A stretch of 64,000 nt of DNA. Origin: Escherichia phage vB_EcoM_SP13. Position numbers and translations under genes: made by a program. Of this stretch, positions 5,195-64,000 are shown in pieces. The notes under the pieces were generated by a model. That model did no database searches and was not told where the DNA came from. It saw only the letters and a list, made by a program, of their open reading frames with translations. The DNA lies in sequence record OP352608; one strand, written 5' to 3'. Within the stretch, counting starts at the first letter, position 1. Each line of letters opens with the position of its first letter.

Positions 5195-5292
5195 TATGCC
5201 GCAGCAGCGTGAATTATTGCGTAAACAATTCCTAACAGGGCGACAACGCAAACAGTGCCCCAAAATGCAAAGCGTCGTGCCTCTTTATCCAT
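5194..5292 (-). CDS. 32-aa single-pass membrane peptide
   Basis: MDKEARRFAFWGTVCVVALLGIVYAIIHAAAA; start overlaps the stop of gene 5285..5572 and stop overlaps the start of gene 4796..5194 (translational coupling). Confidence 0.4.
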   Translation of the reverse strand: MDKEARRFAFWGTVCVVALLGIVYAIIHAAAA

Positions 5293-5572
5293 TGTCCACC
5301 GCCCCAATATCCATGAAATTAAAAACCAATTTCGCCATTTCATCTTGTGAAATGACATTATAGTGCTTAGGCAAATCGCTTTCTGATAATACCTTCTGGG
5401 CTTCTTCTTTTGTCTCAAAGAGAGGGATGCACCAGTTTACTGCTTCACCAGATTCATTACTGTCTACTTGCTTTAAAAAGACCAAGCGGTTATCTTCAGG
5501 ATCAATGCCGCAGATGACGTATTTTGGCAATGCTTTTGCTTTTTGAGTCTTATCAATATCTTCAAATTTCAT
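5285..5572 (-). CDS. hypothetical protein (95 aa)
   Basis: ORF trimmed to MKFEDID with GAGGTG RBS. Confidence 0.6.
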   Translation of the reverse strand: MKFEDIDKTQKAKALPKYVICGIDPEDNRLVFLKQVDSNESGEAVNWCIPLFETKEEAQKVLSESDLPKHYNVISQDEMAKLVFNFMDIGAVDNG

Positions 5573-5653
5573 AATACACCTCACTTGTTAACGTATAATG
5601 AGTATAACTTAATAGCGCATAAAGTAAAGGCGCTTTTCAGCGCCTTGAGTGAA

Positions 5654-7963
5654 TTATTTTGCTGATTTCAGCGCGGCTATCTCTGCCTTGAGTTCACCTA
5701 TCTGATCCATGAGTGCAAGAATAGCCTCGTGGTGCAATGCCGCTGCCACTCCGTAAGTGTCGACTGATTTGACATCCTTGACCACGGTCCCATCAGCCAG
5801 TTCCATATCACCTGAAACAGAAACGGCTTCTGGGAAATCAACCTCAACATCTTGAGCCACGAATCCAAAACCTACTTTCGCGCCGTCAGTTTTCAATCGC
5901 CATGACACGCCATTAATCCTTTTCATCTTGGTCAATGGGTCTTGAATCTTGACAATCTCATCCTTGATTCTGACGTCTGAAGAAGTACCCCAACCGCCAG
6001 CGCAAACAGCATTACCTGCTTGCAGGAATTGGAAATACTTGTTGGTGCCTACACCGCCAGCAGTAGTGGTCATTATGGTCACATCGCCATTACGCTCAGA
6101 ATATACCCGACCATACGTTGCTGTGTTGGCACTGTTCTTAAAATCGATGAACGATTGGTTGTTGGTGTTTCCAATGAACGTCGCTTGACCGCCGCGAGTT
6201 ATCAACTGGCCTTTTGCATCAACGTTCCCAGAGCTGGTGATCAAGTTATTTGGCACAAGCAAGTTGCCGTTGTCGACAAAATCGAATGCCTGGCTGGCGG
6301 CAGTCGTCAAATTGGTAACGGTCAATCGCATGTAATAAGCGCCACCGATAACAGCGCGAATGCGCATGCGACCTTCAGCCTCAACAGCAGTCCCCACTCG
6401 ATACTCCGACATGACGCTGCCGCCGTCAGCGGTCGTGCCTGGACCTGGCATTGCCGTATCGCCGTTTATAACAGACCATTGCGTATTCGCCGCTGTGAAT
6501 CCACCGGATGCACGAATCACCCAAACGCCTGAAAAGTTGCGCGGCAATACTTCATCTGTTGCAAGGTTGTTACGACCGTAAGCTGGGCTTGAGTTAGAAG
6601 CTCTTAGCGCAACGCTTCCCAAAGAGTTCGCACCAGAACTTAAAAGCGAAACACCTCTTACATATCGCGGAATGGTGAATCCTTCTCCATTGATGAATGC
6701 GCCGCCAGCACCTGCGACAACCGTTCCTGATGCTGGTTCACTTGCAGGGCCGGACCCGTGGAAGTTGATGTTGCCAGTGATGTTTGGCAGGAAGGATTCC
6801 ATTATCATTCCGTCATTTGACGAGTTGCCGCCATCGCCACGGGCAAAAAGTGCACGAACACTTCCTGTCTGAACGCCGTTACGGTCTGGAACACGGAATG
6901 TTGTTGTTCCGTTGCCTAAAGAATACTTTCCGCGCTTCAGCGGGTCAGCCAACCAATCTGCATCAGCAATAGGCGTAAGCATTTGCGCATAAGCCCAAAG
7001 CTCAGGCCAGTCTGCACGGTTAAGCAATTGTCCGTCGGCAACAACTTCATACGACTGAATATAGGCGCGACTGTCGCGCAGGTGAAAGTCACCAACGCCA
7101 TAGTTCATTACGCCGTTCATGCTTGGGCCAACGGTGCCAGTATTTACTAAGTTCTCAACCCAACGCTTCGTCGCGGCATCATAATCATTGACGGGGTCGC
7201 CAGCCAGTGGTGTTGAGCCTTGTGGACGAATATTCAACCATGCTTGCGCATTGTCTGCTGATCCTGTGCCGCCCATGGAAGTTGGAACGATGCTCTGATC
7301 AGCAACAGGGCCAAATCCAAAGGCATCTTTCATTCCCTGAATAGTCGTTTGACCTGTGCCGCCGTTTGCAATTGGAATTGTGCTTTGTGAACTATAAATT
7401 TGCGCCCAAGGCGACCATGAAGATGTTTCAGCATTGTACCTTCTTTGGTACAAGTTATTTGAGTTGAATGTGGTGTATCTTTGAATGCAACTTTCCAAAG
7501 ATATGGCAGTCTGCAGGACTTCCAATATCCCAGCTTCCAAGGCTACTGGATAGTTGAGGGATGTCTGCGCAGCAGCATTTGAATATTGGTAATATTGCCC
7601 AAACCAAGTTCCAGTCAAAGAGTTCAGATTTATCCCCGACGGCAAAAGTCCAAAATTCCTGACAGTATTGGTCAAAGATGCGGCAGTTGTTCGAATGGAA
7701 AGCATGTCGCCTGCCGCCCATGCGCGCGCTGCAGTTCCTTCCTGTGCACGCTGCACAGTCAGGACGTTCCCAACCACGGCTGTTACAGTGATGATTTCAA
7801 ATTGGAGGCCTGTTGCAGCGTCGACGATTGTCGCCACTACACGCTCGTTTGCACCCAAGGTCGGAAAGCCCGACCCTGAGCGGATTGTGATTGTGGTGTC
7901 TGAAGTCGTCGCTGGCTGAGCGAGCGCGACCTCAAAGTTGTTTTTGAATATTAGCCTTGGCAT
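5654..7963 (-). CDS. tail fibre/tailspike protein with C-terminal self-cleaving intramolecular chaperone domain (peptidase S74-like)
   Basis: N-terminal TITIRSGSGF...VTAVVGNVLTVQRAQEGT fibre-anchor-like segment; Gly/Ser/Thr-rich repetitive body; C-terminal GGWGTSSDVRIKDEI ... FGFVAQDVE ... LKAEIAALK pattern as in endosialidase-type chaperone domains; CGAGGA RBS. Confidence 0.75.
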   Translation of the reverse strand: MPRLIFKNNFEVALAQPATTSDTTITIRSGSGFPTLGANERVVATIVDAATGLQFEIITVTAVVGNVLTVQRAQEGTAARAWAAGDMLSIRTTAASLTNTVRNFGLLPSGINLNSLTGTWFGQYYQYSNAAAQTSLNYPVALEAGILEVLQTAISLESCIQRYTTFNSNNLYQRRYNAETSSWSPWAQIYSSQSTIPIANGGTGQTTIQGMKDAFGFGPVADQSIVPTSMGGTGSADNAQAWLNIRPQGSTPLAGDPVNDYDAATKRWVENLVNTGTVGPSMNGVMNYGVGDFHLRDSRAYIQSYEVVADGQLLNRADWPELWAYAQMLTPIADADWLADPLKRGKYSLGNGTTTFRVPDRNGVQTGSVRALFARGDGGNSSNDGMIMESFLPNITGNINFHGSGPASEPASGTVVAGAGGAFINGEGFTIPRYVRGVSLLSSGANSLGSVALRASNSSPAYGRNNLATDEVLPRNFSGVWVIRASGGFTAANTQWSVINGDTAMPGPGTTADGGSVMSEYRVGTAVEAEGRMRIRAVIGGAYYMRLTVTNLTTAASQAFDFVDNGNLLVPNNLITSSGNVDAKGQLITRGGQATFIGNTNNQSFIDFKNSANTATYGRVYSERNGDVTIMTTTAGGVGTNKYFQFLQAGNAVCAGGWGTSSDVRIKDEIVKIQDPLTKMKRINGVSWRLKTDGAKVGFGFVAQDVEVDFPEAVSVSGDMELADGTVVKDVKSVDTYGVAAALHHEAILALMDQIGELKAEIAALKSAK

Positions 7964-8001: not shown

Positions 8002-8343
8002 TTAATTTCTTTTGAGAGGAATATGACGGTGGCTGCCATTATTTGGTTTAATAATGAGCATAAAAACGATTAGAAAGATGATGGCTGATATACTTAATTC
8101 AATCAGCGCGGCTTGAGATATAGATTGATCTTCGTGATACTGCTTTTGCATTTCTGCTTTCTTCTGAGCGCAAACTTCAGGTGATATGTAATCGCCTTTT
8201 GAGTTGCCATAATAAATTTCGCCGTTTTCAGAAATCAGTCTGCCGCAAATATCCGTTTCAGCCTTTGCACTTGACATCATAATAACGGTGCCGATAATAG
8301 CGGCGATAGTCCAGATTAACAGTTGTGATAAAGTGTTGTTCAT
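8002..8343 (-). CDS. membrane or exported protein (signal-peptide-like N-terminus and C-terminal transmembrane helix)
   Basis: ORF trimmed to MNNTLSQ with AAGAGG RBS; hydrophobic LLIWTIAAIIGTVIMMSSAKA and ISAIIFLIVFMLII segments. Confidence 0.55.
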   Translation of the reverse strand: MNNTLSQLLIWTIAAIIGTVIMMSSAKAETDICGRLISENGEIYYGNSKGDYISPEVCAQKKAEMQKQYHEDQSISQAALIELSISAIIFLIVFMLIIKPNNGSHRHIPLKRN

Positions 8344-8773: not shown

Positions 8774-8984
8774 TTTCTTTCCACTCCACAAATGTGTTGC
8801 CGCTTGTTTCTCTGTTTAGCAGGTATCTGCCGCGCATCCCATGAAGGCTGAACTCAACCGTCGATGGATTAGATTTTGAAAGCCATATAGGCTGCCCGTC
8901 GAATGGACCGCCTACGCATGTATATTTCGCTTTTGGCTCACTCCTTTTGGGCCGTTTTGCCCGCTCTTTGATTGATAGTCTCAT
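8763..8984 (-). CDS. hypothetical small basic protein
   Basis: ATG overlaps the stop of gene 8984..9199 (ATGA). Confidence 0.5.
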   Translation of the reverse strand: MRLSIKERAKRPKRSEPKAKYTCVGGPFDGQPIWLSKSNPSTVEFSLHGMRGRYLLNRETSGNTFVEWKENGK

Positions 8985-9199
8985 CAGTCTTCACCTTGAG
9001 ATTCCAGACAAGTAAGGACAAGCCAAGTCATCGGAAGAATCAAAACCAGAGAAATGAGGGACCAGATAGACCAGCACAGGATGACAGACTTGAATGTGTG
9101 AACGTCGCCAAACGCAGCAGTAAAACAGAATCCCATTACAAATGCAATAGCGGTGGAATGGTTGTCTATGGCTTTGATGGCACGGTCGATGAGTTTCAT
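8984..9199 (-). CDS. small membrane protein with holin-like topology
   Basis: GGAGGT RBS; 71 aa with two or three hydrophobic helices; no adjacent lysin, so a holin role is speculative. Confidence 0.5.
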   Translation of the reverse strand: MKLIDRAIKAIDNHSTAIAFVMGFCFTAAFGDVHTFKSVILCWSIWSLISLVLILPMTWLVLTCLESQGED

Positions 9200-9348
9200 A
9201 TTACCTCCGGTTTTGAGTTAATATGATTATAACGCAGAGTCTCAGAAAGGCAAACTTTTTGTGAATTTTAATCAAAAAAAATGGCCAGAAAAAAATCTGG
9301 CCGAAAGATCACCCTTTATCCACTACTAAGCTGGAATCATAATTTTAC

Positions 9349-9378
9349 TTGATATAGCTTGTACAAGCAAACTATAAT
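9349..9378 (+). promoter_or_regulatory. promoter-like element upstream of the terminase gene
   Basis: -35 TTGATA, 18-nt spacer, -10 TATAAT abutting the ATG at 9379, which would favour the in-frame ATG at 9412 as the real start. Confidence 0.4.
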
Positions 9379-10839
9379 ATGAATAAAATATTAACACATA
9401 ATTGGAAATTCATGTACCAGTTGAATCCTGCTTTAAAAGAAGTCTGGAAGACAAAAGCGCGATACAAAGTAATATACGGCGGTCGTGCATCTTCCAAATC
9501 GCACGATGCCGCTGGTTTTGCTATTTATTTGGCGGCAAACTTCAAATTAAAATTCCTTTGCGTTCGACAATTCCAGAACAAAATTTCTGAATCTGTATAT
9601 ACTCTATTAAAAGACAAAATAGAGATTTCTGATTTCAAAGATGAGTTCAATTTATTAAAGAACTCTATTGAACATAAAAGAACTAAATCTGAATTTCTAT
9701 TTTACGGTATCGCACGTAACGTTGATGAAATTAAATCAACAGAAGGTGTTGACGTCCTTTGGCTGGAAGAAGCGCACGCGCTTACTGAAGAACAGTGGGA
9801 CATTATTGAGCCGACAATCCGTAAAGAAGGGTCCGAAATATGGATCATCTTTAACCCCGATGAAGAGGCCGATTTTGTCTACCAAAACTTTGTTATGCGA
9901 CCGCCGAAGAATGCCATTGTTAAAAAGATAAACTGGCAAGACAATCCATTTTTGTCGCAAACGATGCTGGACGTTATTGCAGGCATGTACGAGCGCGACC
10001 CGAAAAAGGCAGAGCACGTTTATGGCGGCGTGCCGAAGACTGGCGGCGATAAATCTGTAATCAACCGCGCATTCGTTAAGGCCGCGCTTAATCTCCACAA
10101 ACACCCTACGCTGGGATGGAGTTTGTCAGGGTCTAACCGTATAGGCTTTGACGTAGCGGACGATGGCGACGACCTTAACGCCACTGCATTCGTTACAGGA
10201 AACGTATTGCGCGGCATCAAGACATGGGAAGGTCTGGAAGATGAATTGTTAAAATCGGCAAGCGGAGTTTGGAAAGATGCGCTTACATTTGGCGCTTCTA
10301 TAACTTATGACGCCATCGGTGTCGGCGCTTTTGCTGGTTCAAAATTTGATGAACTGAACGAGTATGCAATACATGAAAATCCATCATTTCCAAGAATCGA
10401 ATTTAATGCGTTCAATGCGCAAGGGTCTGTTGATGATCCTGATGACGTTTTTCTTGAATTACCACACGTTGAAATACTCAATAAAGACCATTTCGCAAAC
10501 ATAAAAGCGCAAAAGTGGACTGAAATTGCAGAGAGATTCAGAAAGACATACGAATATGCAACTGGGCAAGCCGTATATCCGACTGATGAGTTGATTTCAA
10601 TCGACACCGATGGCATACCAGAACTTGGAATTCCAGCTTGGACTACTGAAGAGATTGAGACGTTTCTTTTTGAGATGTCAGCGCCGCGCAAAGATACGTC
10701 TGTTCTTGGCAAGTTCAAAGTTGAATCTAAAAAGGATATGGCAAAGCGTGGAGTCAAATCACCTAACAAAGCGGACGCGGCAATCATGGCATTAATGAAA
10801 CCAATCGTTGCAGCATCCGGCTTCTTCTCTAACCTTTAA
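9379..10839 (+). CDS. terminase large subunit
   Basis: N-terminal deviant P-loop RYKVIYGGRASSKSH typical of large terminases, acidic nuclease-type C-terminal half, position upstream of the portal; alternative start at 9412. Confidence 0.85.
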   Translation: MNKILTHNWKFMYQLNPALKEVWKTKARYKVIYGGRASSKSHDAAGFAIYLAANFKLKFLCVRQFQNKISESVYTLLKDKIEISDFKDEFNLLKNSIEHKRTKSEFLFYGIARNVDEIKSTEGVDVLWLEEAHALTEEQWDIIEPTIRKEGSEIWIIFNPDEEADFVYQNFVMRPPKNAIVKKINWQDNPFLSQTMLDVIAGMYERDPKKAEHVYGGVPKTGGDKSVINRAFVKAALNLHKHPTLGWSLSGSNRIGFDVADDGDDLNATAFVTGNVLRGIKTWEGLEDELLKSASGVWKDALTFGASITYDAIGVGAFAGSKFDELNEYAIHENPSFPRIEFNAFNAQGSVDDPDDVFLELPHVEILNKDHFANIKAQKWTEIAERFRKTYEYATGQAVYPTDELISIDTDGIPELGIPAWTTEEIETFLFEMSAPRKDTSVLGKFKVESKKDMAKRGVKSPNKADAAIMALMKPIVAASGFFSNL

Positions 10840-30745: not shown

Positions 30746-31474
30746 ATGATGGCAGAAAAGTTAACCCAACTTACAAGCCCCAACCAAACTGACAAATCAA
30801 GTATGTTTGCCGCGCTGCAGGGAATGCTGGACCGTGGCAAGTATACCACTGACGGCATGATTCCTGCACAAGTAATATCTTATGACCGCAAACAGAATTT
30901 AGCAGTCATAAAGCCTGTTATTCATTTCGTAAGTCTTGATGATAAACCAGTGGAGCGTCAACCCCTGGTGTCAATTCCTGTGTTGGCAATCGGCGGCGGC
31001 GGCTTTGTAATCAACTTTCCTCTGAAAGAGGGTGATTTGGGCTGGATATTCGCTGGCGACCGCGAGTTGTCGACATTCCTTGAAGAATTGAAGCCGACCG
31101 CGCCTACCAATGGTCGCGCGAAAACTTTCGCTGATGGACTGTTCATACCGGATGTATTTCGAAAATACACCATAAGCGGAGAGGATGCAGGCTCAATGGT
31201 AATCCAGTCACTCAGCGGCGCTGTCCGCATTGCATTAAGTGATGACTCGATAAACATAACTGCATCCGCTGGAGTAAATGTGAAAACACCAATAACCACT
31301 ATCGACCAACAATTGATAGTTAATGGAAAGGCAACGTTCAATGGTGGTATAGAAGGGAAAGAAGGAACGACGGCAACGCTTCCGACTGGCACAACAATCG
31401 GCGGCATAAATGTATCCACTCACGGTCACATAGGTAACGGACCTGGAAACAGAACTGGGGATATGATAGAATGA
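30746..31474 (+). CDS. baseplate central spike/hub protein candidate (gpV / gp138-N-like)
   Basis: ORF trimmed to MMAEK after AAGGAG RBS; synteny before the baseplate J-like gene. Confidence 0.45.
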   Translation: MMAEKLTQLTSPNQTDKSSMFAALQGMLDRGKYTTDGMIPAQVISYDRKQNLAVIKPVIHFVSLDDKPVERQPLVSIPVLAIGGGGFVINFPLKEGDLGWIFAGDRELSTFLEELKPTAPTNGRAKTFADGLFIPDVFRKYTISGEDAGSMVIQSLSGAVRIALSDDSINITASAGVNVKTPITTIDQQLIVNGKATFNGGIEGKEGTTATLPTGTTIGGINVSTHGHIGNGPGNRTGDMIE

Positions 31475-32742
31475 GTGCACAATATTCTTACATAGTAAGC
31501 ACTGGTGTAATAACCATCGACACAGCCGATTTGCTGGCTGACGTTCAAAGTGAATGGATTGAGTCATTAGGGGTCGGGCTTGACGTTGATGCATCGACAC
31601 CGCAAGGCACCCTAATCGCGACAGAGACTTTGGCAAGAACTTCAGTCATGAAGAACAACGCCGAGCTGGGAAGTCTCATCAACCCTAATTATTCATATGG
31701 CGTATACCTTGATGCCATCGCGGCATTGCTTGGTATTGAGCGAACGAAAAACATCAGCACGATGTTGAAAGGAATTACCGCAGAAGGAACGCCGCTGTTG
31801 GAAATTCCTGCTGGAAGTTTGCTGACGGATTCAAACGGCACATACTGGTATGTTCTTGAAGACGTTCAAATCACTTCGACTGGCAAGACAAGCAACATGA
31901 CTCTTGCATCAAAAGATTATGGCTCATTTACTGTTGCCCCTGATGAAGAGTTTACAGTGGTGCAAGGATATGACGTCATCGGATGGTCAAGAACGTATTC
32001 AACATCAGCAACGACGACCGTACCAGGTACGCAATACATGGGCGACGGAGCGTTAAAGGCCGCTCGCGTAAAGCGCCTTTACCAGCAGGGAATTGCATCG
32101 CTTGGTGCTATTCGCGCTCGCGCCATGTCGGTCGACGGCGTGGAATCGGTGATGGTCGTGGAGAACGACACGGGATTGCCTGGAACGGTGCGCGGCATCA
32201 CCTTTTCAACGCCTAACGGTGTCTGGGTGTGCGCAAGCGGAACGTTCGATAAGCAAGTTTTTGCTGAGACTATTTTCAAGGCAAAGATGGGCGGCCAGCC
32301 GTGGGACTTTGGTGCTACCAACCAGGGTGATCCAGTCAACTCGCCTGATGGAATAGAAGTTGTCGACGAAGAATCGCAACTGTCTTATTTCGTAAAGTTC
32401 AACACTGCTGTCATATATGACTTGTATGTCGATATTACTGTTGTAAGAGGCACCGCAACCGCCGATGCCGAATCTATTATTGCCGCTGTGTTGAATTACG
32501 GTAATGGAAATTTTAACGGCGAGCAAGGATATGCAGTGGGCCAATCTCAATCTTCTTTTGAGATTGCTTCAGCAGTGTCTTGCGAGTATCCAGGTCTGTA
32601 CATTAAAGATTGCAAAATTGCAGCAGTAAAAAGCGGACAGGCAGCGCCAAATTATCCATCCGATTACGGCAGCGAGTGGATTGCCAATCCTTGGGATAAG
32701 GCTAATACTATGCGCGGCTTCATCAACGTTAAATTTGTGTGA
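31471..32742 (+). CDS. baseplate J-like wedge protein
   Basis: 423 aa; synteny; N-terminal region pattern resembles baseplate J family proteins (unverified). Confidence 0.5.
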   Translation: MSAQYSYIVSTGVITIDTADLLADVQSEWIESLGVGLDVDASTPQGTLIATETLARTSVMKNNAELGSLINPNYSYGVYLDAIAALLGIERTKNISTMLKGITAEGTPLLEIPAGSLLTDSNGTYWYVLEDVQITSTGKTSNMTLASKDYGSFTVAPDEEFTVVQGYDVIGWSRTYSTSATTTVPGTQYMGDGALKAARVKRLYQQGIASLGAIRARAMSVDGVESVMVVENDTGLPGTVRGITFSTPNGVWVCASGTFDKQVFAETIFKAKMGGQPWDFGATNQGDPVNSPDGIEVVDEESQLSYFVKFNTAVIYDLYVDITVVRGTATADAESIIAAVLNYGNGNFNGEQGYAVGQSQSSFEIASAVSCEYPGLYIKDCKIAAVKSGQAAPNYPSDYGSEWIANPWDKANTMRGFINVKFV

Positions 32743-32748
32743 GGAACT

Positions 32749-35487
32749 ATGCAAAAGTTTGACACAAACCTGTTGCAAAACCTTAAGTGGATGCAGAACA
32801 ATGCGCCAAACATTACATCTTTGGTGCAAAAGAAAAGTGACTGGTATGAAAGATACCAAGATCAGTTTTGGACTGACTGGTACAATAACATTTTTAACAT
32901 TGACACTTGTGATGCAATGGGCATTTATATTTGGTGCGACATTCTTTGCATACCAAGAGACTTTGTGGACTTAAGCAATTATGAGCACAACTGGGCGTTT
33001 GGACCGACGCGCGACAACTTTGAAGGTGCGGACAACATCGGCGGCAACTTCTTTGGTGCTGGCGGGAAGGTTGTAAAGAATATCGAAGAAGCGCGCATAC
33101 TTCTTAAGCTTCGTTATCTGACGCTTACAAGTGATGGCCGCATCGAAAGTATCAATCGCATGCTTAAGTGGATTTTCAACCGTGGAGAGGCTTGGGATTA
33201 CTCTTCATCACGCTACGCATATGTGACCGACAATACTCAAGGCGCAGTGTCTTCGTCTGAATCAACCAATGGCTCATTCCTTCTGTACGACTGGCAAGGG
33301 TCAACTGAGATTCAGCACGATTATAAGCAGATACTTTTAAGCCATGGCAACAACGCCGGACTGACCATCAGCGGAGTATCAGGCACCGTGTCACGGATGG
33401 CGCATCCAGATTGGTACTCATGGGGGAATGGCTCCGGCACAGGTCTTGTCGGCGGCGACACCAGACAGTATGGCGGCCCTGATTACTATGGACAGTTGTG
33501 TGGTGATTACCCAGGCGAGGCCATAGAGAATTTTGCCAACGCAGTAAGGGTAGTCAAGACTGCTTCAAGCGGTGAGCCTGTGTATTCTTTGGCAGATAAT
33601 CCAAGCGCCCAATCCATTGCGCTTCCTTCGCAGGCTGGCGTTAACGTTTGTTATAGCTTCTACATAAAGGTGCTTTCTGAAAATGTCGCTTCTGTTTCGG
33701 TTACAGAGAATAGTGATGCATCTAGTAATGGAAAGTTGTTTGACCCAGTCACTGGGCAGTTCAACTTGGACCCGTATTTGAGCTATTTCATCACAGGCAA
33801 ATTCGATGGAGTAAGAAGGGAATCAAGCCGTGGTGGCATCAAAGCAATCGGCGGCGATTGGTATCGAATCTGGATTGTAGAGCAGACGGCAACCGCTGCG
33901 TCTGGAGTAAGTACCAGCTTTTCAATAGAGTTGAAGGCGACTGCCGCTGGATCAACTCAAACTCGTGAATTGCCTGAAGGGTCTGATGCACTTCTTTTTG
34001 GATACTCGATTTGCGTCTGCGACCCTGTTCAGAATCCAAATGGACCTGAGCCTTATTTTTATGGAACGCAAAACCCTCCTTCTGACGGAACAGCAATACT
34101 GTCTGTAACGGCGGGAACGCTCAACAACATCTCCTGTGCAAACGGACCGCTGACGACAAGAAACGGTGTGGTTGGCGAGTCATTCATGCAACCTGGCTCA
34201 TCACTTGCATACTCTGGCTCAATCGGCGGCTACCCGTACCCAGGGAACGCCACATTGATTGCAGAGACTGACGGCATCAGACGCTCATGGAACGTTAGCA
34301 GGCTTGATGGAGTACCGCCGCCGCCGACCGCTGACTATTACATGGAATACGTCATCGGACCTTATTTCGCCAACAACCTGTCAGACAACTTTAAGACGCT
34401 AGTTGGCGACAGGGATGAAGGATTCTTGCCAGCAAATGCCGGAATACGCTGGCAGCTTTACCAAGAAGTCGCAGACTTATCTGATATTGATTTGACTGTC
34501 AGCAACATAACAGACACGCGAGTAGGATTTGAAACGGAAGGTGTTGCTTGGATTAACACTGACGGTATCATCAGAGTTGGCGGCATTAACGAGTGGCCGC
34601 TGAACAACTTCAACGGTGTGATACGCCAGCTTGAATCTTTGAAAGGTGTAAACCAGGTCATCGACGGCGCGCTTGTCAACGACTATTCAATCTCAAAAGC
34701 ATCAAGAGATGACTTTGGTCGTGAAATCCCACGTGCCGCAATCACTAACTACTGGAGATACACACAGCCCAATGACGGCACATCTTTTGGCAATATCATT
34801 GAGGATGGCGCAAACACGGTCACAGCGACGCCAATCAGCGGTGTACCCAACCAGTTCCCATCATTCAAGCTTTCCGCTACAATAGGGACTGTGCCAGCGT
34901 CCGGTTATGCACGCGCTGTACTTGCTACTAAATACACTGGCACCCTGACTGGTCCTTTATCATTCATTGCGGTAGTCAAAAACAACACGGTTAACGGTCA
35001 AAAACTTTTTGTAACTGTACCGGATGGGATGGGTGGCTATATCCCTAAATTCTACAACATAGGCGCAGGTGATTTGCAACGTATCGAAATTGACCTTGCC
35101 GCTGAGATTGTTGAAGGCGCTACCTGGGATGGATCAACAGGCGGCATCAGCATCGGTTTGATATCAGGGAAAGACTTGCCGACCGAAGTTGGTACGACTC
35201 TTGAACTTGATATTTTAAGCTTGATGCTTGTGTCTGGTAATACGATGAATGCGCTTGCAATTTCAACAAGCGAAGATTTCGCAAAGAAGACTGCGACTTC
35301 TATATACATCAAAAACCCAGGATCACTTGCCACTGGAGTTCAATTGATTGCTTCTAATGGTGATGTTGTAGCAACAGTAAACTTTCCGAGAAGTGCTGCT
35401 GGTGGTTATGTTTCAAGCATGAACATAACTGACTTAACTGGTGATTGGGCATCAACCCTTTTATCAAAAATTAAATACATCGTGTAG
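32749..35487 (+). CDS. tail fibre / baseplate wedge protein
   Basis: 912 aa; Gly/Ser/Thr/Asn-rich; GAGGAA RBS; synteny. Confidence 0.55.
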   Translation: MQKFDTNLLQNLKWMQNNAPNITSLVQKKSDWYERYQDQFWTDWYNNIFNIDTCDAMGIYIWCDILCIPRDFVDLSNYEHNWAFGPTRDNFEGADNIGGNFFGAGGKVVKNIEEARILLKLRYLTLTSDGRIESINRMLKWIFNRGEAWDYSSSRYAYVTDNTQGAVSSSESTNGSFLLYDWQGSTEIQHDYKQILLSHGNNAGLTISGVSGTVSRMAHPDWYSWGNGSGTGLVGGDTRQYGGPDYYGQLCGDYPGEAIENFANAVRVVKTASSGEPVYSLADNPSAQSIALPSQAGVNVCYSFYIKVLSENVASVSVTENSDASSNGKLFDPVTGQFNLDPYLSYFITGKFDGVRRESSRGGIKAIGGDWYRIWIVEQTATAASGVSTSFSIELKATAAGSTQTRELPEGSDALLFGYSICVCDPVQNPNGPEPYFYGTQNPPSDGTAILSVTAGTLNNISCANGPLTTRNGVVGESFMQPGSSLAYSGSIGGYPYPGNATLIAETDGIRRSWNVSRLDGVPPPPTADYYMEYVIGPYFANNLSDNFKTLVGDRDEGFLPANAGIRWQLYQEVADLSDIDLTVSNITDTRVGFETEGVAWINTDGIIRVGGINEWPLNNFNGVIRQLESLKGVNQVIDGALVNDYSISKASRDDFGREIPRAAITNYWRYTQPNDGTSFGNIIEDGANTVTATPISGVPNQFPSFKLSATIGTVPASGYARAVLATKYTGTLTGPLSFIAVVKNNTVNGQKLFVTVPDGMGGYIPKFYNIGAGDLQRIEIDLAAEIVEGATWDGSTGGISIGLISGKDLPTEVGTTLELDILSLMLVSGNTMNALAISTSEDFAKKTATSIYIKNPGSLATGVQLIASNGDVVATVNFPRSAAGGYVSSMNITDLTGDWASTLLSKIKYIV

Positions 35488-35497
35488 AGGAACGGCA

Positions 35498-37282
35498 ATG
35501 CCAACACTTATTAACAGACCTTTCGCGCAAAGCGGTGATGTATCCGTGGTGCCGGATGCAAGTCCAAGCGGTTATGTGAACTTCCAGCGCGGCTACACCC
35601 CTGACTATGCACTTGCGCTGGAAGCCGGAAACGTCGCCGCGAAAGCAGTTGAACGTGAGTCGATGAACTGGTTGCTGAATCTGATCACCGACAACCTTAT
35701 GTTCATCCAGGACCACGGCGCTCAACAGTATTTCTCGTCTGACTTGAAGCCAGATGGATACCCGAAAAATGCCATCGTTGTCAGCAACTCTGGCACCCCT
35801 TCAGCGCCTGAATGGCGCATTTTCCAGAGTGTGGTAGACGGCAACACCAGCGCAGTCCCAGCTAACGGCGAAACGGAATCTTGGCAGGAATTGACGCTGC
35901 CTAGCGAAGCGAGAAAATATATTCCTATGCCTGCTGGCGGCGATGCGCAAAACCCGTATTTTGTTCGCGGACTGATTTCAAACTTTGTGGACTTTGATAA
36001 TATCACGACTTCCACAACTATTGTCATTCAATCTGATGCCGTTGCCGCTCTCTGCTCTAACATCCCGAACGCGGTTGGTGCGACGAAGGTTGCAGGTCGT
36101 CTCCAGGTTTGCGCTTGGCAGGTTGATGCGCAGACTTTCGCCCTGCAACAATACACGTCAATGAACGGATATGTTTTCACCCGCTCTTATACTTCTGGTG
36201 CTTGGAGTGCTTGGATTCAAAATGCAACTGTTCAAGACGTGCAAATCGGCACGCCGAATCTTGCATCAGGTAAAGGCGCACAAGATATAATCCTTACCGT
36301 TCCGGCAGGTTATGCATGGCCGCCGTCAGCAGGTAGTCGCCTGACAATTGTCAATGATGTAACGACTACCGGACCTGTTACCGTGACCATTGGTGCAAAC
36401 AAAGTTGCAGTCCTTGGATTCGACGGCGGCGAGCTGCCAGCAGGGTCCATCGTCGGTCTTCTTCCTTTTACTATTATTTATGACGGCACCGTTTGGCGTC
36501 TTCTTCAAGCATTCGGCGCGGCGCAAATCGGTGTCGATGCTAGTGAGCCGCAACAGTTTGTTACAAAGCGCCAACTCGATGCTTTGGCTGCGAAATTGAT
36601 AACTATGGGTGATGTATTCGAAGTCGGTGAGACTCGATTCTTGACTAATGGCACTAACCCAAATACTAAACTGGGCGCTTATGGACAGGTTTGGACCAGA
36701 TTGCCTGACAACATGGTCATCAGGACATCTGGCACAGCAAGAAACGGCCTTGCCACTGGCGGCGCGGACTCTGTTACTCTTACCGCCGCCATGCTTCCTC
36801 TGCACAATCACAGCGTGAACATAACTACGCGACAGAGCGGTCCATGGTCCAATACCACTGGAGGCGCAGGCAACCATAACCACACAGGCGATACCAGTCA
36901 AAACGGCGCTCACGTGCACGGAATGGATGCTGCTGGTAATCATCATCACGACAGTGGCTGGGGTGAGGCTTATGCAGACCAGGCTAGATACGGGGTGTAT
37001 GATGGCACGCACAATAACCTTGGAAGTGCAAGGTCTGATTATGACAACTACAAATACAACACCTCGACTAACGGTAGCCACGTCCACAATATTCAATCTT
37101 CTGGGTCACACACCCATGGGTTGAATATAAATTTCGCTGGCAATCACAGCCATAGCTATACCCTTCCCGCTCACACTCACGATGTGGTCGGTAACACTGG
37201 CAATGCAGGGCAGTCCGTCCCAACGGCTGTTTCAACTCTGCCGCGATATGTCGTCTTGAACGGCTGGTACAGAAGCGCATAA
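35498..37282 (+). CDS. tail fibre protein with His-x-His repeat-rich C-terminal tip
   Basis: ORF trimmed to MPTLINRP after GAGGAACGG; C-terminal 150 aa carry many HNH / HxH triplets, reminiscent of metal-binding HxH tips of T4-type fibres. Confidence 0.7.
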   Translation: MPTLINRPFAQSGDVSVVPDASPSGYVNFQRGYTPDYALALEAGNVAAKAVERESMNWLLNLITDNLMFIQDHGAQQYFSSDLKPDGYPKNAIVVSNSGTPSAPEWRIFQSVVDGNTSAVPANGETESWQELTLPSEARKYIPMPAGGDAQNPYFVRGLISNFVDFDNITTSTTIVIQSDAVAALCSNIPNAVGATKVAGRLQVCAWQVDAQTFALQQYTSMNGYVFTRSYTSGAWSAWIQNATVQDVQIGTPNLASGKGAQDIILTVPAGYAWPPSAGSRLTIVNDVTTTGPVTVTIGANKVAVLGFDGGELPAGSIVGLLPFTIIYDGTVWRLLQAFGAAQIGVDASEPQQFVTKRQLDALAAKLITMGDVFEVGETRFLTNGTNPNTKLGAYGQVWTRLPDNMVIRTSGTARNGLATGGADSVTLTAAMLPLHNHSVNITTRQSGPWSNTTGGAGNHNHTGDTSQNGAHVHGMDAAGNHHHDSGWGEAYADQARYGVYDGTHNNLGSARSDYDNYKYNTSTNGSHVHNIQSSGSHTHGLNINFAGNHSHSYTLPAHTHDVVGNTGNAGQSVPTAVSTLPRYVVLNGWYRSA

Positions 37283-61483: not shown

Positions 61484-61966
61484 ATGATCATCCATCGCCC
61501 TTTAATGTTAAGTAAAACAGAAGCAGCAATTATTTTAGCGGCAGCAAGTCAATGTAACGTTCCAATTCCATTAAGGATGAAAATAAATAAATTCATCGAC
61601 AGCGAGTTTGCAGATGTTGAGTCATTCGATATTTTACCGCCAACCAAAAGGCATGTTGAAAGACTTGTACATCACCAATCACGTTGCGCAAAAGTTCCTA
61701 TTCAAACTTATGTTGATAAAAAGCCGCGCCTTAAACCTGTTCCGGCTGATAAGATAGAAGTTGGTGACGTTATTGTTTGCGTATATTACGGCAGTCAGAT
61801 TTTCAATGCTGTTGTAGTAAGGCGATACAGCATGAACGGTTGCCAATACATGGAAGTGACGAACGCAAAGAAAGAACCTGGCAGCTTGAACGTGGCTTAC
61901 GCATTAAGGGAATTCAGCAGTCCTTCTTGCACTCTTTATAAGGTACTCGACCATGGCTCATGTTAA
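61484..61966 (+). CDS. hypothetical protein (160 aa)
   Basis: CAGAGGT RBS. Confidence 0.55.
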   Translation: MIIHRPLMLSKTEAAIILAAASQCNVPIPLRMKINKFIDSEFADVESFDILPPTKRHVERLVHHQSRCAKVPIQTYVDKKPRLKPVPADKIEVGDVIVCVYYGSQIFNAVVVRRYSMNGCQYMEVTNAKKEPGSLNVAYALREFSSPSCTLYKVLDHGSC

Positions 61967-62300
61967 AGACGAAGTGTTGTTTGGCGCAGAGATTAAGAAA
62001 CGTGTCAGAGAAATGGCAGGAGAAGAAAGAGTGAAGTCGCTGCGAAAAGGTTTTGATCACATCAATGGTGTATCCGGCACGAAGGAGATGGGCGTGTTGG
62101 TAAAAGACATTCGCATTGGCGATGTCATGGTCATCGACCGACAAGCACGAGTCGTTATCCAGGTGCAACCGAACGATGATGAAGGATGTGTCCTATTGAA
62201 GCTGAAGAAGCTTTCATCCAGCCCAGCAAAAGCCGTCATCAAGAAGGTCTGGCCCGAAGGATTACGCAAACTCATTCGTCGACCCGTGGAGAATGTATAA
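61953..62300 (+). CDS. hypothetical protein (115 aa)
   Basis: ORF with overlapping start. Confidence 0.5.
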   Translation: MAHVKDEVLFGAEIKKRVREMAGEERVKSLRKGFDHINGVSGTKEMGVLVKDIRIGDVMVIDRQARVVIQVQPNDDEGCVLLKLKKLSSSPAKAVIKKVWPEGLRKLIRRPVENV

Positions 62301-62536
62301 TGGAAGATTATATCAATGCGATGTACATGGCATTCTATGTCGTGCAACTTCCCAATGGCGCGGTATTTTATGGCGAGTATACCTTTGACGTTCAATATGA
62401 CGTTTCAGAGCGTACAGTGTTAACAAGGGAGTTGATTGCGGACCTTAAGGACGACATAAAACGCGTCGCGCGGCAGCAGTTCAATTTGGATGACACCGTC
62501 ATCGTTCGAATTACCGGAATAACAGAGGTGCAGTGA
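62300..62536 (+). CDS. hypothetical small protein (78 aa)
   Basis: ORF 62186..62536 trimmed to the ATG overlapping the upstream stop (TAATG). Confidence 0.45.
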   Translation: MEDYINAMYMAFYVVQLPNGAVFYGEYTFDVQYDVSERTVLTRELIADLKDDIKRVARQQFNLDDTVIVRITGITEVQ

Positions 62537-62865
62537 TGACCCGTGATCAGATACTCGCCGCGCATGAGCGTGAGAAGGTGAAAGAGATTTGTAAAAGGCA
62601 CGCATTATTTGCTGACTCTTATGTGTTCTTAAAGTCTTGCATCAAACAAAACGCAAGGATGGATAACACTGTATTGACATTCAACCTTTTGTCTAACGGA
62701 GCAAAGCTTGATGCAATATGCGGGTGCAGAATTGCCAGCATGACGTTTGAACGAGGTGCTCACAAAGACTCTTTCTTCTATCAATTCTCCCACCGGACGG
62801 GTGATACAAAGATAACAAGGACAAGGCACGAGATAGAGATTGACCTACTCCACTATGTAAAATGA
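62533..62865 (+). CDS. hypothetical protein (110 aa)
   Basis: ORF with overlapping start. Confidence 0.5.
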   Translation: MMTRDQILAAHEREKVKEICKRHALFADSYVFLKSCIKQNARMDNTVLTFNLLSNGAKLDAICGCRIASMTFERGAHKDSFFYQFSHRTGDTKITRTRHEIEIDLLHYVK

Positions 62866-62881
62866 ATGTCAAAGGTGATTT

Positions 62882-63076
62882 ATGAGTGTTAAACTAGACA
62901 TACAGAAAACTCTTGATAAGGCCGCTGCAATAAAGAACTTCATGGATTGTTATGCCAGTTGCACGCTTTATGGAAGCGTGCCAAACGGCGACGTAAGGCC
63001 GGAAAGCATGCTTGAGTGGCTTGTTGAACATCGTTACATCATCGACATAGTTGATGAATACATAAAGCAGAAATGA
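62882..63076 (+). CDS. hypothetical small protein (64 aa)
   Basis: AAAGGTGA RBS. Confidence 0.5.
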   Translation: MSVKLDIQKTLDKAAAIKNFMDCYASCTLYGSVPNGDVRPESMLEWLVEHRYIIDIVDEYIKQK

Positions 63077-63160
63077 ATATCAAAAAGGTGAGCTAAATGC
63101 TTGCCTTTTCTTTTATCAATACTTATACTCTTTTCATCAAGACGAAAAGTGAGGTGAATT

Positions 63161-63478
63161 ATGATTTACTTAGGCATCGACAAGGAACAAGACGAGCGGT
63201 TAGGAAGCGTGTTAAACGTAGACTTGAACACAGCTGTACACATCAAGCCTTGGCCAGATGGCCACCCCGACGTAGTTGTACCCGTTGCGCCTTGGACGCG
63301 TTACGTTGCCATTGACAATAACGGCCTTGTTCATTGTTATTCAGAAAGGCCAACGTATTTCGAGATGTACCGCGAATGGCTCATGACTGGATGGGCAAAG
63401 GTGCGCTGTTGCGGCGAAGTCGGTCTGGATGGCTGGAGCTTCGAGGCTAGTGAATCGTGTGTCGAGGTGCAATTATGA
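63161..63478 (+). CDS. hypothetical protein (105 aa)
   Basis: GTGAGGTGA RBS. Confidence 0.55.
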   Translation: MIYLGIDKEQDERLGSVLNVDLNTAVHIKPWPDGHPDVVVPVAPWTRYVAIDNNGLVHCYSERPTYFEMYREWLMTGWAKVRCCGEVGLDGWSFEASESCVEVQL

Positions 63479-63693
63479 ATGGCGCGCTGGGTAAGTTGTC
63501 TTTCAACAAGCGTAATGAGCTGCGCATGGTGTCGCGCTTTCAGTTTGTATTGAACGCAATGTCGAATATTGCCATCACGATGCTTCGCGCTGATTGCCCT
63601 GCTGAAAAGCGTGAGACTTTATTTGAACGTCACAACCAATTACGAAAGGCTGCTTATAAGCTGCAGCAATATGCTATGGAGTATGCAAAATGA
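63475..63693 (+). CDS. hypothetical small protein (72 aa)
   Basis: ORF 63457..63693 trimmed to the ATG overlapping the upstream stop. Confidence 0.45.
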   Translation: MNGALGKLSFNKRNELRMVSRFQFVLNAMSNIAITMLRADCPAEKRETLFERHNQLRKAAYKLQQYAMEYAK

Positions 63694-64000
63694 GAATGAA
63701 GCGTTGCCCTTACTGCCACGATGTGATGCACCTTCCACACGAAGAGTTTGTGCAGCACATGACTAACTGTGATAAGAATCCTAATAGCGAAAGCCAGCTT
63801 GAAGAAAGAATGTTCTTGGTGTCATTCAAAGCTTCTGCTTATGAAGTGCAACGTTCTTACGGCGCACCAAGTACGATTTACTGTCCAACAACATTGAGAA
63901 GTGATATCGACTCAATTCAGCTTGCTGCCTGGATTAACGTTAAGGAAGGAATCACGCCGCACTTTATTGCGCGCATCCAATCTCAGATTCTACAAATGAA
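63690..64000 (+). CDS. zinc-ribbon-containing protein, 3'-truncated by the window edge
   Basis: ATG overlapping the upstream stop (ATGA); N-terminal CPYCHD ... H ... C cluster; frame stays open to position 64000. Confidence 0.4.
   Translation, partial: MRMKRCPYCHDVMHLPHEEFVQHMTNCDKNPNSESQLEERMFLVSFKASAYEVQRSYGAPSTIYCPTTLRSDIDSIQLAAWINVKEGITPHFIARIQSQILQM

Follow-up and report, generated by a model that had tools for sequence, protein, structure and literature searches.

A minus-strand tail fibre gene of a Wifcevirus phage with variable internal modules and a C-terminal S74-type chaperone domain

Wifcevirus phages carry two fibres, a conserved one (Gp32) and a variable, 'T-shaped' one (Gp114), according to Humolli et al. 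2025 (PLoS Biol, PMC11990801). These authors describe Gp114 as an N-terminal baseplate anchor followed by a Gp12-like receptor-binding domain (RBD1), a T5-like one (RBD2) and a C-terminal intramolecular chaperone, and report that its RBDs have been exchanged with Tequintavirus and Gordonclarkvirinae. They also state that the Wifcevirus isolates of that study depend on O16 O-antigen, and propose that the variable-fibre family targets O-antigen. LtfA of phages DT57C and DT571/2 has a predicted autocleavable PF13884 domain and binds O-antigen (Golomidova et al. 2016, PMC4728585). In T5 pb1, a Ser1264/Lys1269 pair cuts Thr1263|Ser1264 and the S1264A mutation abolishes cleavage; the chaperone domains of T5 and K1F depart once cleaved (PMC4690869). 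Here we analyse a tail fibre gene at positions 5654..7963, minus strand, of a 64,000-nt stretch of DNA from Escherichia phage vB_EcoM_SP13 (OP352608), and refer to this whole stretch as the window.

The gene is a single ATG-started open reading frame (ORF) for 769 amino acids (aa), whose numbering we use below, with a GAGGA ribosome-binding site within the 38-nt spacer to the preceding gene. Its DNA is a 100% match to gene F13_0033 of Escherichia phage F13 (OP745617.1, Wifcevirus, 68.8 kb), which is labelled 'tail protein' in that record and nothing more; we therefore speak of the F13 fibre. In a PHROGs profile search, PHROG 6921 'tail fiber protein' spans the product end to end (E=9.5e-206). 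More than 120 full-length homologues occur on ~68-kb contigs; homologues bear the NCBI name 'pyocin knob domain-containing S74 family peptidase', and the orthologues include Gp114 of ManiWeber/Bas99, Bas100_0105, vBEco4M7_27 and ECML-117 gp24. For the vB_Eco4M-7 orthologue, PF13884 is already recorded in the GenBank entry. Taking all the evidence together, we hold with high confidence that the product serves a Wifcevirus myovirus as its variable, receptor-binding tail fibre and that it ends in an S74 chaperone. The fibre family, its unusual genome position and its chaperone domain have all been published before, and Humolli et al. 2025 together with the T5/LtfA literature already cover the biology. 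The gain is one of annotation: the F13 'tail protein' can now be named as a variable receptor-binding fibre with a C-terminal S74 chaperone. The gene and its parts, all on the minus strand, are as follows.

5654..7963, minus strand: tail fibre gene F13_0033, 769 aa, single ATG-started ORF
7664..7963, minus strand: N-terminal anchor domain, aa 1-100, near-invariant in 62 homologues; presumed baseplate attachment
7388..7654, minus strand: knob domain, aa 104-192, R-type-pyocin-fibre-like; first variable module
6464..7366, minus strand: shaft and putative collar/Gp12-like RBD1 scaffold, aa 200-500, very similar to T5-like LtfA
6584..6811, minus strand: hypervariable stretch in RBD1, aa 385-460 (column conservation 0.26-0.48); second variable module
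6464..6523, minus strand: conserved island, aa 481-500, VWVIRASGGF.AANT.WSV (conservation 0.95); candidate recombination anchor
5981..6463, minus strand: distal receptor-binding domain RBD2, aa 501-661, variable among homologues; third variable module
5657..5980, minus strand: intramolecular chaperone domain, aa 662-769 (108 aa, 11.6 kDa), with a C-terminal helix at aa 736-768
5963..5980, minus strand: predicted catalytic motif S662-D-V-R-I-K667, with the predicted scissile bond Ser661|Ser662

The Pfam profile Peptidase_S74 (PF13884) matches aa 662-714 (E=5.1e-10, profile positions 1-57 of 58) with 39.9 bits against a gathering cut-off of 22, and the same family is precomputed for nearly all homologues. 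Across an alignment of 62 full-length homologues (55-97% identical), Ser662 and Lys667, which sit within SSDVRIK, are invariant and Asp663 is at least 90% conserved, while the residues around the dyad (250) are the most variable part of the protein. About 10 unrelated upstream cassettes all end in S-[D]-x-x-x-K and are followed by a domain of 101-113 residues. By analogy with the cleavage of T5 pb1 at Thr1263|Ser1264, the scissile bond here would be Ser661|Ser662; such a cut is predicted to turn the 81.3-kDa precursor into a 661-residue mature chain of 69.7 kDa and an 11.6-kDa chaperone. A sequence search of the PDB matches the C-terminus to S16 gp37 and the MyRF ICA domain, to which a profile built from the 62 homologues adds the GA-1 appendage chaperone. 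The modelled fold of the domain likewise matches the MyRF ICA domain, the chaperones of K1F endosialidase and the GA-1 appendage, and T5 pb1 with its chaperone. A preliminary description of this locus, made from the letters alone, had read the 769-aa protein as a fibre ending in FGFVAQDVE, a coiled-coil-type segment and an S74-type intramolecular chaperone. The strings are there (WGTSSDVRIKDEI carries Ser662/Lys667, FGFVAQDVE lies downstream of it and the long predicted C-terminal helix ends in AEIAALKSAK), and the chaperone assignment is upheld by the above-threshold Peptidase_S74 hidden Markov model match, by a dyad spacing equal to that of T5 pb1 Ser1264/Lys1269 and by the match of the modelled domain to solved chaperones.

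Two proteins from metagenome contigs of 3.6-3.9 kb, P0079 and P0082, came up as candidate chaperone-less variants. They have no precomputed PF13884, and their chaperone domain stops after ~45 residues and gives way to unrelated sequence. We rejected both, as SDENLK is still present; they are probably frameshifts, truncated calls or assembly errors.

Upstream of the chaperone, the fibre is a composite. Its residues 4-99 match the N-terminus of the podovirus fibre 8jov_1 in a search of PDB sequences, a chain that we assign to Ralstonia phage GP4 via a tblastn match to GP4. This anchor domain also stands at the N-termini of fibres of many unrelated phages, with no Pbunavirus among the matches listed. 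Over the N-terminal 126 residues, every Wifcevirus record matched shows 87-94% identity, and the anchor presumably attaches the fibre to the baseplate. The R2-pyocin fibre knob matches aa 104-192 (E about 1e-8) with the profile built from the 62 homologues. This knob is a separate variable module, its DNA being 59-72% identical to that of relatives between flanks at 81-98%, and it may be a third binding or exchange unit, exchanged independently within the same polypeptide. Further along, DT57C LtfA (8hqz_d) is matched among PDB sequences with a whole-protein E of 1.3e-130 and a best stretch of aa 234-767 (3.5e-126). The similarity is very high over aa 234-395, and the conserved island at aa 481-500 is kept in DT57C LtfA too; the DNA of the RBD1 scaffold region also resembles that of the T5-like phage KookSpook. 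Because the homology to 8hqz_d starts only at aa 234, the F13 fibre is best described as a chimera sharing distal modules rather than as a member of the LtfA/pb1 family.

A protein of this kind could in principle be an enzymatic tailspike, that is, a glycan depolymerase instead of a binding fibre. Structural matches to tailspikes were obtained, but with high root-mean-square deviation, and they could not be assigned to one part of a poor multidomain model. Searches of Pfam, PHROGs and the PDB returned no catalytic or beta-helix depolymerase family, the homologous LtfA fibres are binders, and Humolli et al. class these proteins as non-enzymatic fibres (PMC11990801). We consider a tailspike very improbable.

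The same gene, with the same neighbours and on the same strand, is present in Bas100, FEC19, ECML-117 and vB_Eco4M-7, as a comparison of the locus across related phages, suggested in the preliminary description, made plain. All Wifcevirus genomes checked have it at this one position, which makes it a fixed core gene and not an optional extra. The conservation is not uniform along the gene, as seen in a DNA identity profile of the locus against three Wifcevirus relatives.

Flank upstream of the fibre gene: 89-100%
Anchor domain: 90-97%
Knob module (aa ~100-200): 59-72%
Shaft with RBD1 scaffold: 81-98%
Hypervariable stretch in RBD1 (aa ~385-460): 28-43%
Island at aa 481-500: about 70%
RBD2 and chaperone (aa ~505-750): 26-58%
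Last 10 codons of the fibre gene: 79-93%
First 90 nt downstream of the fibre gene: 84-97%
Further downstream of the fibre gene: 33-84%

Judged from this mosaic profile, the exchanged units are internal modules, namely the knob, the loop region in RBD1, and RBD2 together with the chaperone; recombination may occur at the conserved islands. The nearest relatives of the RBD2 and chaperone cassette among isolated phages are Gordonclarkvirinae podoviruses, at 65% (PAS59), 59% (EcoN5) and 58%. The cassette is 52% identical to LtfA of the T5-like phage DT571/2, versus ~40% to other Wifcevirus fibres. The protein had earlier been called an exchangeable extra receptor-binding protein; its modules are exchanged, yet the gene is no extra. 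The module boundaries could be used for host-range engineering or for predicting the serotypes open to a Wifcevirus phage.

Several observations weigh against this reading, or against parts of it. No counterpart of the T5 'sensor' Arg1250 was identified upstream of Ser662: no Arg stands at any of the 32 positions preceding Ser662 in the cassette of F13, in a region that is unalignable between cassettes (the sensors of T5 pb1 are Arg1250/Asp1239). The Pfam Collar match at aa 346-363 falls below threshold (E=0.055), and T4 gp12 was not found among the PDB matches of the fibre, by sequence or by profile. The AlphaFold model of the full-length monomer has a mean predicted local distance difference test score of 51, a low value of the kind that an intertwined trimer would give. 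Its confident parts are the knob, aa 501-570 and the chaperone domain, and its poor parts aa 1-100, 193-390 and 574-661, so that the T-shape and the Gp12-like and T5-like folds are taken from Humolli et al. 2025.

The remaining point against comes from one of two sets of virion proteomics, which cover the orthologues in vB_Eco4M-7 and ECML-117. According to Necel et al. 2020 (PMC7048862), both phages were purified in CsCl and analysed by bottom-up mass spectrometry (MS). We mapped the supplementary peptide lists of that study onto ECML-117 gp24 and vBEco4M7_27, taking tryptic peptides of 7-35 residues as expected. For ECML-117 gp24, 18 of the 22 expected peptides of the mature part are detected and 0 of the 7 from the chaperone (Fisher p=2e-4). 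None of its 109 peptide-spectrum matches (PSMs) falls in the chaperone, and detection stops with a peptide that ends 7 residues short of the predicted cut. The picture for vBEco4M7_27 differs. Its 34 peptides (80% coverage) include 27 from the mature part, and all 6 expected chaperone peptides are seen, with 500 of the 2012 PSMs. The median peptide area is 8.8e8 for the chaperone versus 6.3e8 for the mature part, or about equimolar, and release is therefore not uniformly supported. Both chaperones are ~65% identical to that of F13. A site-spanning peptide is reported in neither peptide set, and the disagreement between the two phages goes unmentioned in the main text of Necel et al. 2020, as far as it was available. 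A fibre truncated at the predicted serine, which the preliminary description had expected MS of virions to reveal, thus finds support in published data on the ECML-117 orthologue but not in those on vB_Eco4M-7. For F13 itself, the predicted diagnostic peptides are YFQFLQAGNAVCAGGWGTSSDVR, which spans the site in the uncleaved chain, and YFQFLQAGNAVCAGGWGTS, which marks the cleaved form.

One way to read the vB_Eco4M-7 data is that the chaperone is not released at all: it would stay on the virion, uncleaved or cleaved and non-covalently bound, and cap RBD2. The complete set of peptides and the near-equal areas in a chaperone 65% identical to that of F13 speak for such retention. The complete absence of chaperone peptides from ECML-117, purified by the same procedure, next to a well-covered mature part, speaks against it, as do the strictly conserved Ser/Lys dyad, which argues for cleavage, and the departure of the T5 and K1F domains after cleavage (PMC4690869). 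Moreover, non-structural proteins (helicase, endolysin and glyoxalase) are present in the vB_Eco4M-7 preparation, where the fibre ranks first by score; this suggests that free or unprocessed fibre co-purified. We regard retention as unlikely, and an excess of unprocessed or free fibre as the simplest explanation of the vB_Eco4M-7 chaperone peptides. The orthologue MS thus supports processing in the fibre family and leaves chaperone release unsettled. It is tempting to speculate, though we rate this slightly lower still, that in at least some Wifcevirus phages the chaperone, cleaved or uncleaved, stays on the virion, where each fibre chain would have ~1 copy of it removably capping the distal RBD. 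If true, the virion-retained chaperone would be just that, a removable cap, rather than a throw-away folding aid.

With a released chaperone as the favoured outcome, assembly of the fibre might proceed as follows. The C-terminal 108 residues would align three fibre chains in register, their terminal helices forming a trimeric coiled coil that templates the folding of the distal RBD. Once the RBD has folded, Ser662, activated by Lys667, would cut Ser661|Ser662, leaving the 661-residue (69.7 kDa) mature fibre and freeing the 11.6-kDa chaperone fragment. The mature trimer would then dock on the baseplate via its conserved N-terminal anchor, with the knob, the collar/Gp12-like RBD1 and the distal RBD2 displayed for contact with surface glycans, of which O-antigen is the likeliest. 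Host range would evolve by swapping modules with fibres of unrelated phages across conserved linkers, the position of the gene staying fixed.

From ~9199 to 4100 the minus strand carries a block of small genes, several with hydrophobic products, and the fibre gene is the largest among them. A gap of 180 bp separates the head of this block from the plus-strand terminase large-subunit gene (9379..10839), and the two are transcribed divergently; the fibre gene itself is ~1.4 kb away from the terminase gene and on the other strand. Within the spacer at 9200..9378, sigma-70-like hexamers point either way, and a sigma-70-like promoter heads the block (9253..9226, minus strand). Such a block of small, early-type genes behind its own promoter could also house a moron or a secreted protein, that is, a product which is not part of the virion. 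In CsCl-purified virions of two phages, however, few proteins are detected better than the orthologues, the fibre matches tail-fibre families over its full length, and its N-terminal anchor is common to structurally resolved virion fibres. A non-virion role is therefore the least probable of the alternatives to the tail fibre reading. Two features adjoin the fibre gene directly.

5627..5646, minus strand: terminator-like hairpin, 8 nt past the fibre stop codon, predicted from a consensus scan and the sequence
8002..8343, minus strand: conserved gene for a 113-aa membrane protein, directly upstream of the fibre, 38-nt spacer

The 113-aa product starts like a signal peptide and has a hydrophobic segment at its C-terminal end, and a 71-aa ORF at 8984..9199 is also hydrophobic; the minus-strand block with membrane and small proteins noted earlier is borne out by these two. 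A 342-nt orthologue of the 113-aa gene occurs in Bas100, FEC19, ECML-117 and vB_Eco4M-7, with a GenBank note on an orthologue reading 'transmembrane domain and signal peptide'. The F13 record starts this gene at TTG 8433 (143 aa), while the 342 nt (113 aa) of its relatives fit ATG 8343. Conservation of the spacer before the fibre (99% among four phages) is uninformative, as the adjoining coding sequence is conserved to the same degree. We rejected a shared promoter motif in this spacer, GGTTATAATAC, as its 14 sites (at most 2 mismatches) compare with 11.5 expected and show no enrichment. Ahead of the minus-strand promoter at the head of the block, positions 9283..9302 hold a terminator-like hairpin, GGCCAGAAAAAAATCTGGCC, followed by T8 on the minus strand.

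After the hairpin downstream of the fibre comes a 95-aa protein (5285..5572, minus strand), 63% identical to vBEco4M7_26 and with no family match in Pfam/PHROG-type family searches of the window proteins. vBEco4M7_26 is represented by 5 peptides (62% coverage) in CsCl-purified phage; ECML-117 gp23, a neighbour of the fibre gene gp24 to judge from the numbering, is weakly detected by MS. At the far end of the window, position 61934 corresponds to F13 nt 1, and the window (61934..64000) passes the end of the F13 record into its first 2068 bases. As it crosses the ends of the linear OP745617.1, the source sequence is either a circular permutation of that record or a joined form of it.

The main tail module lies on the plus strand at ~31.4-37.9 kb and also includes a GH19 endolysin.

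31471..32742, plus strand: Baseplate_J protein
32749..35487, plus strand: DUF2612 baseplate-type protein, 912 aa
35441..37282 (probable start 35498), plus strand: conserved tail fibre with HxH repeats, 613-aa ORF, PHROG 5717/4900 tail protein

The preliminary description had placed our gene outside the tail module and apart from two fibres there. Its separateness is confirmed, the distance being 24-30 kb with the opposite strand, but the tail operon holds one fibre: the 613-aa ORF at 35441..37282 is one, and the 912-aa ORF at 32749..35487 is of the DUF2612 baseplate type. The tail-locus fibre corresponds to the conserved Gp32 of ManiWeber as presented by Humolli et al. 2025 (PMC11990801). At least 8 HxH-type motifs lie within its last 170 residues. 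The GTG start listed for it falls inside the preceding gene, and ATG 35498, 11 nt past the preceding stop, is likelier. PHROG 4797, with 567 positions, is matched end to end by the 912-aa DUF2612 protein, which implies large insertions in the latter. This protein also has a weak 'spike fiber' domain match at aa 285-398, and it could be the docking site for one of the fibres.

Among the known systems, the F13 fibre shares with T5 pb1 and K1F endosialidase (MEROPS S74; PMC4690869; 4UW8, 3GW6) the i, i+5 spacing of Ser and Lys, a similar fold, a C-terminal trimerising helix and a chaperone placed directly after the distal domain. It differs from T5 pb1 in that its chaperone has 108 rather than 133 aa, its sensor arginine was not identified and its cleavage is predicted; similarity to the pb1 bullet domain was not detected with the 62-homologue profile against the PDB. 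Whereas in the R2-type pyocin fibre (6CT8, 6CL6, 6CU2) the knob belongs to the distal part of a tailocin fibre, the F13 phage fibre has just one knob, close to its N-terminus.

The T5-like LtfA fibres (DT57C/DT571/2; 8HQZ chain d) are homologous over aa 234-767 and share the C-terminal PF13884 with a predicted autocleavage site. The N-terminus of the F13 fibre is nonetheless unrelated: LtfA inserts into the siphovirus LtfC collar, whereas F13 has a GP4-type anchor and a pyocin-type knob. The F13 fibre is also shorter (769 versus 1076 aa), and an LtfB-type branch partner was not identified.

The closest counterpart is Gp114. The knob (aa 104-192) is a further variable module in F13, unmentioned in the available text of PMC11990801, which names two RBDs. 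Unlike in most Wifcevirus phages, to whose fibres it is ~40% identical, the RBD2 and chaperone cassette of F13 is 65% identical to that of a Gordonclarkvirinae podovirus. In length class (755-795 aa), in the order anchor-RBD1-RBD2-chaperone and in combining a conserved N-terminus with variable RBDs, the F13 fibre agrees with Gp114 as described in that paper. It is orthologous to Gp114 of ManiWeber/Bas99, with an N-terminus 92-94% identical and the same genome position.

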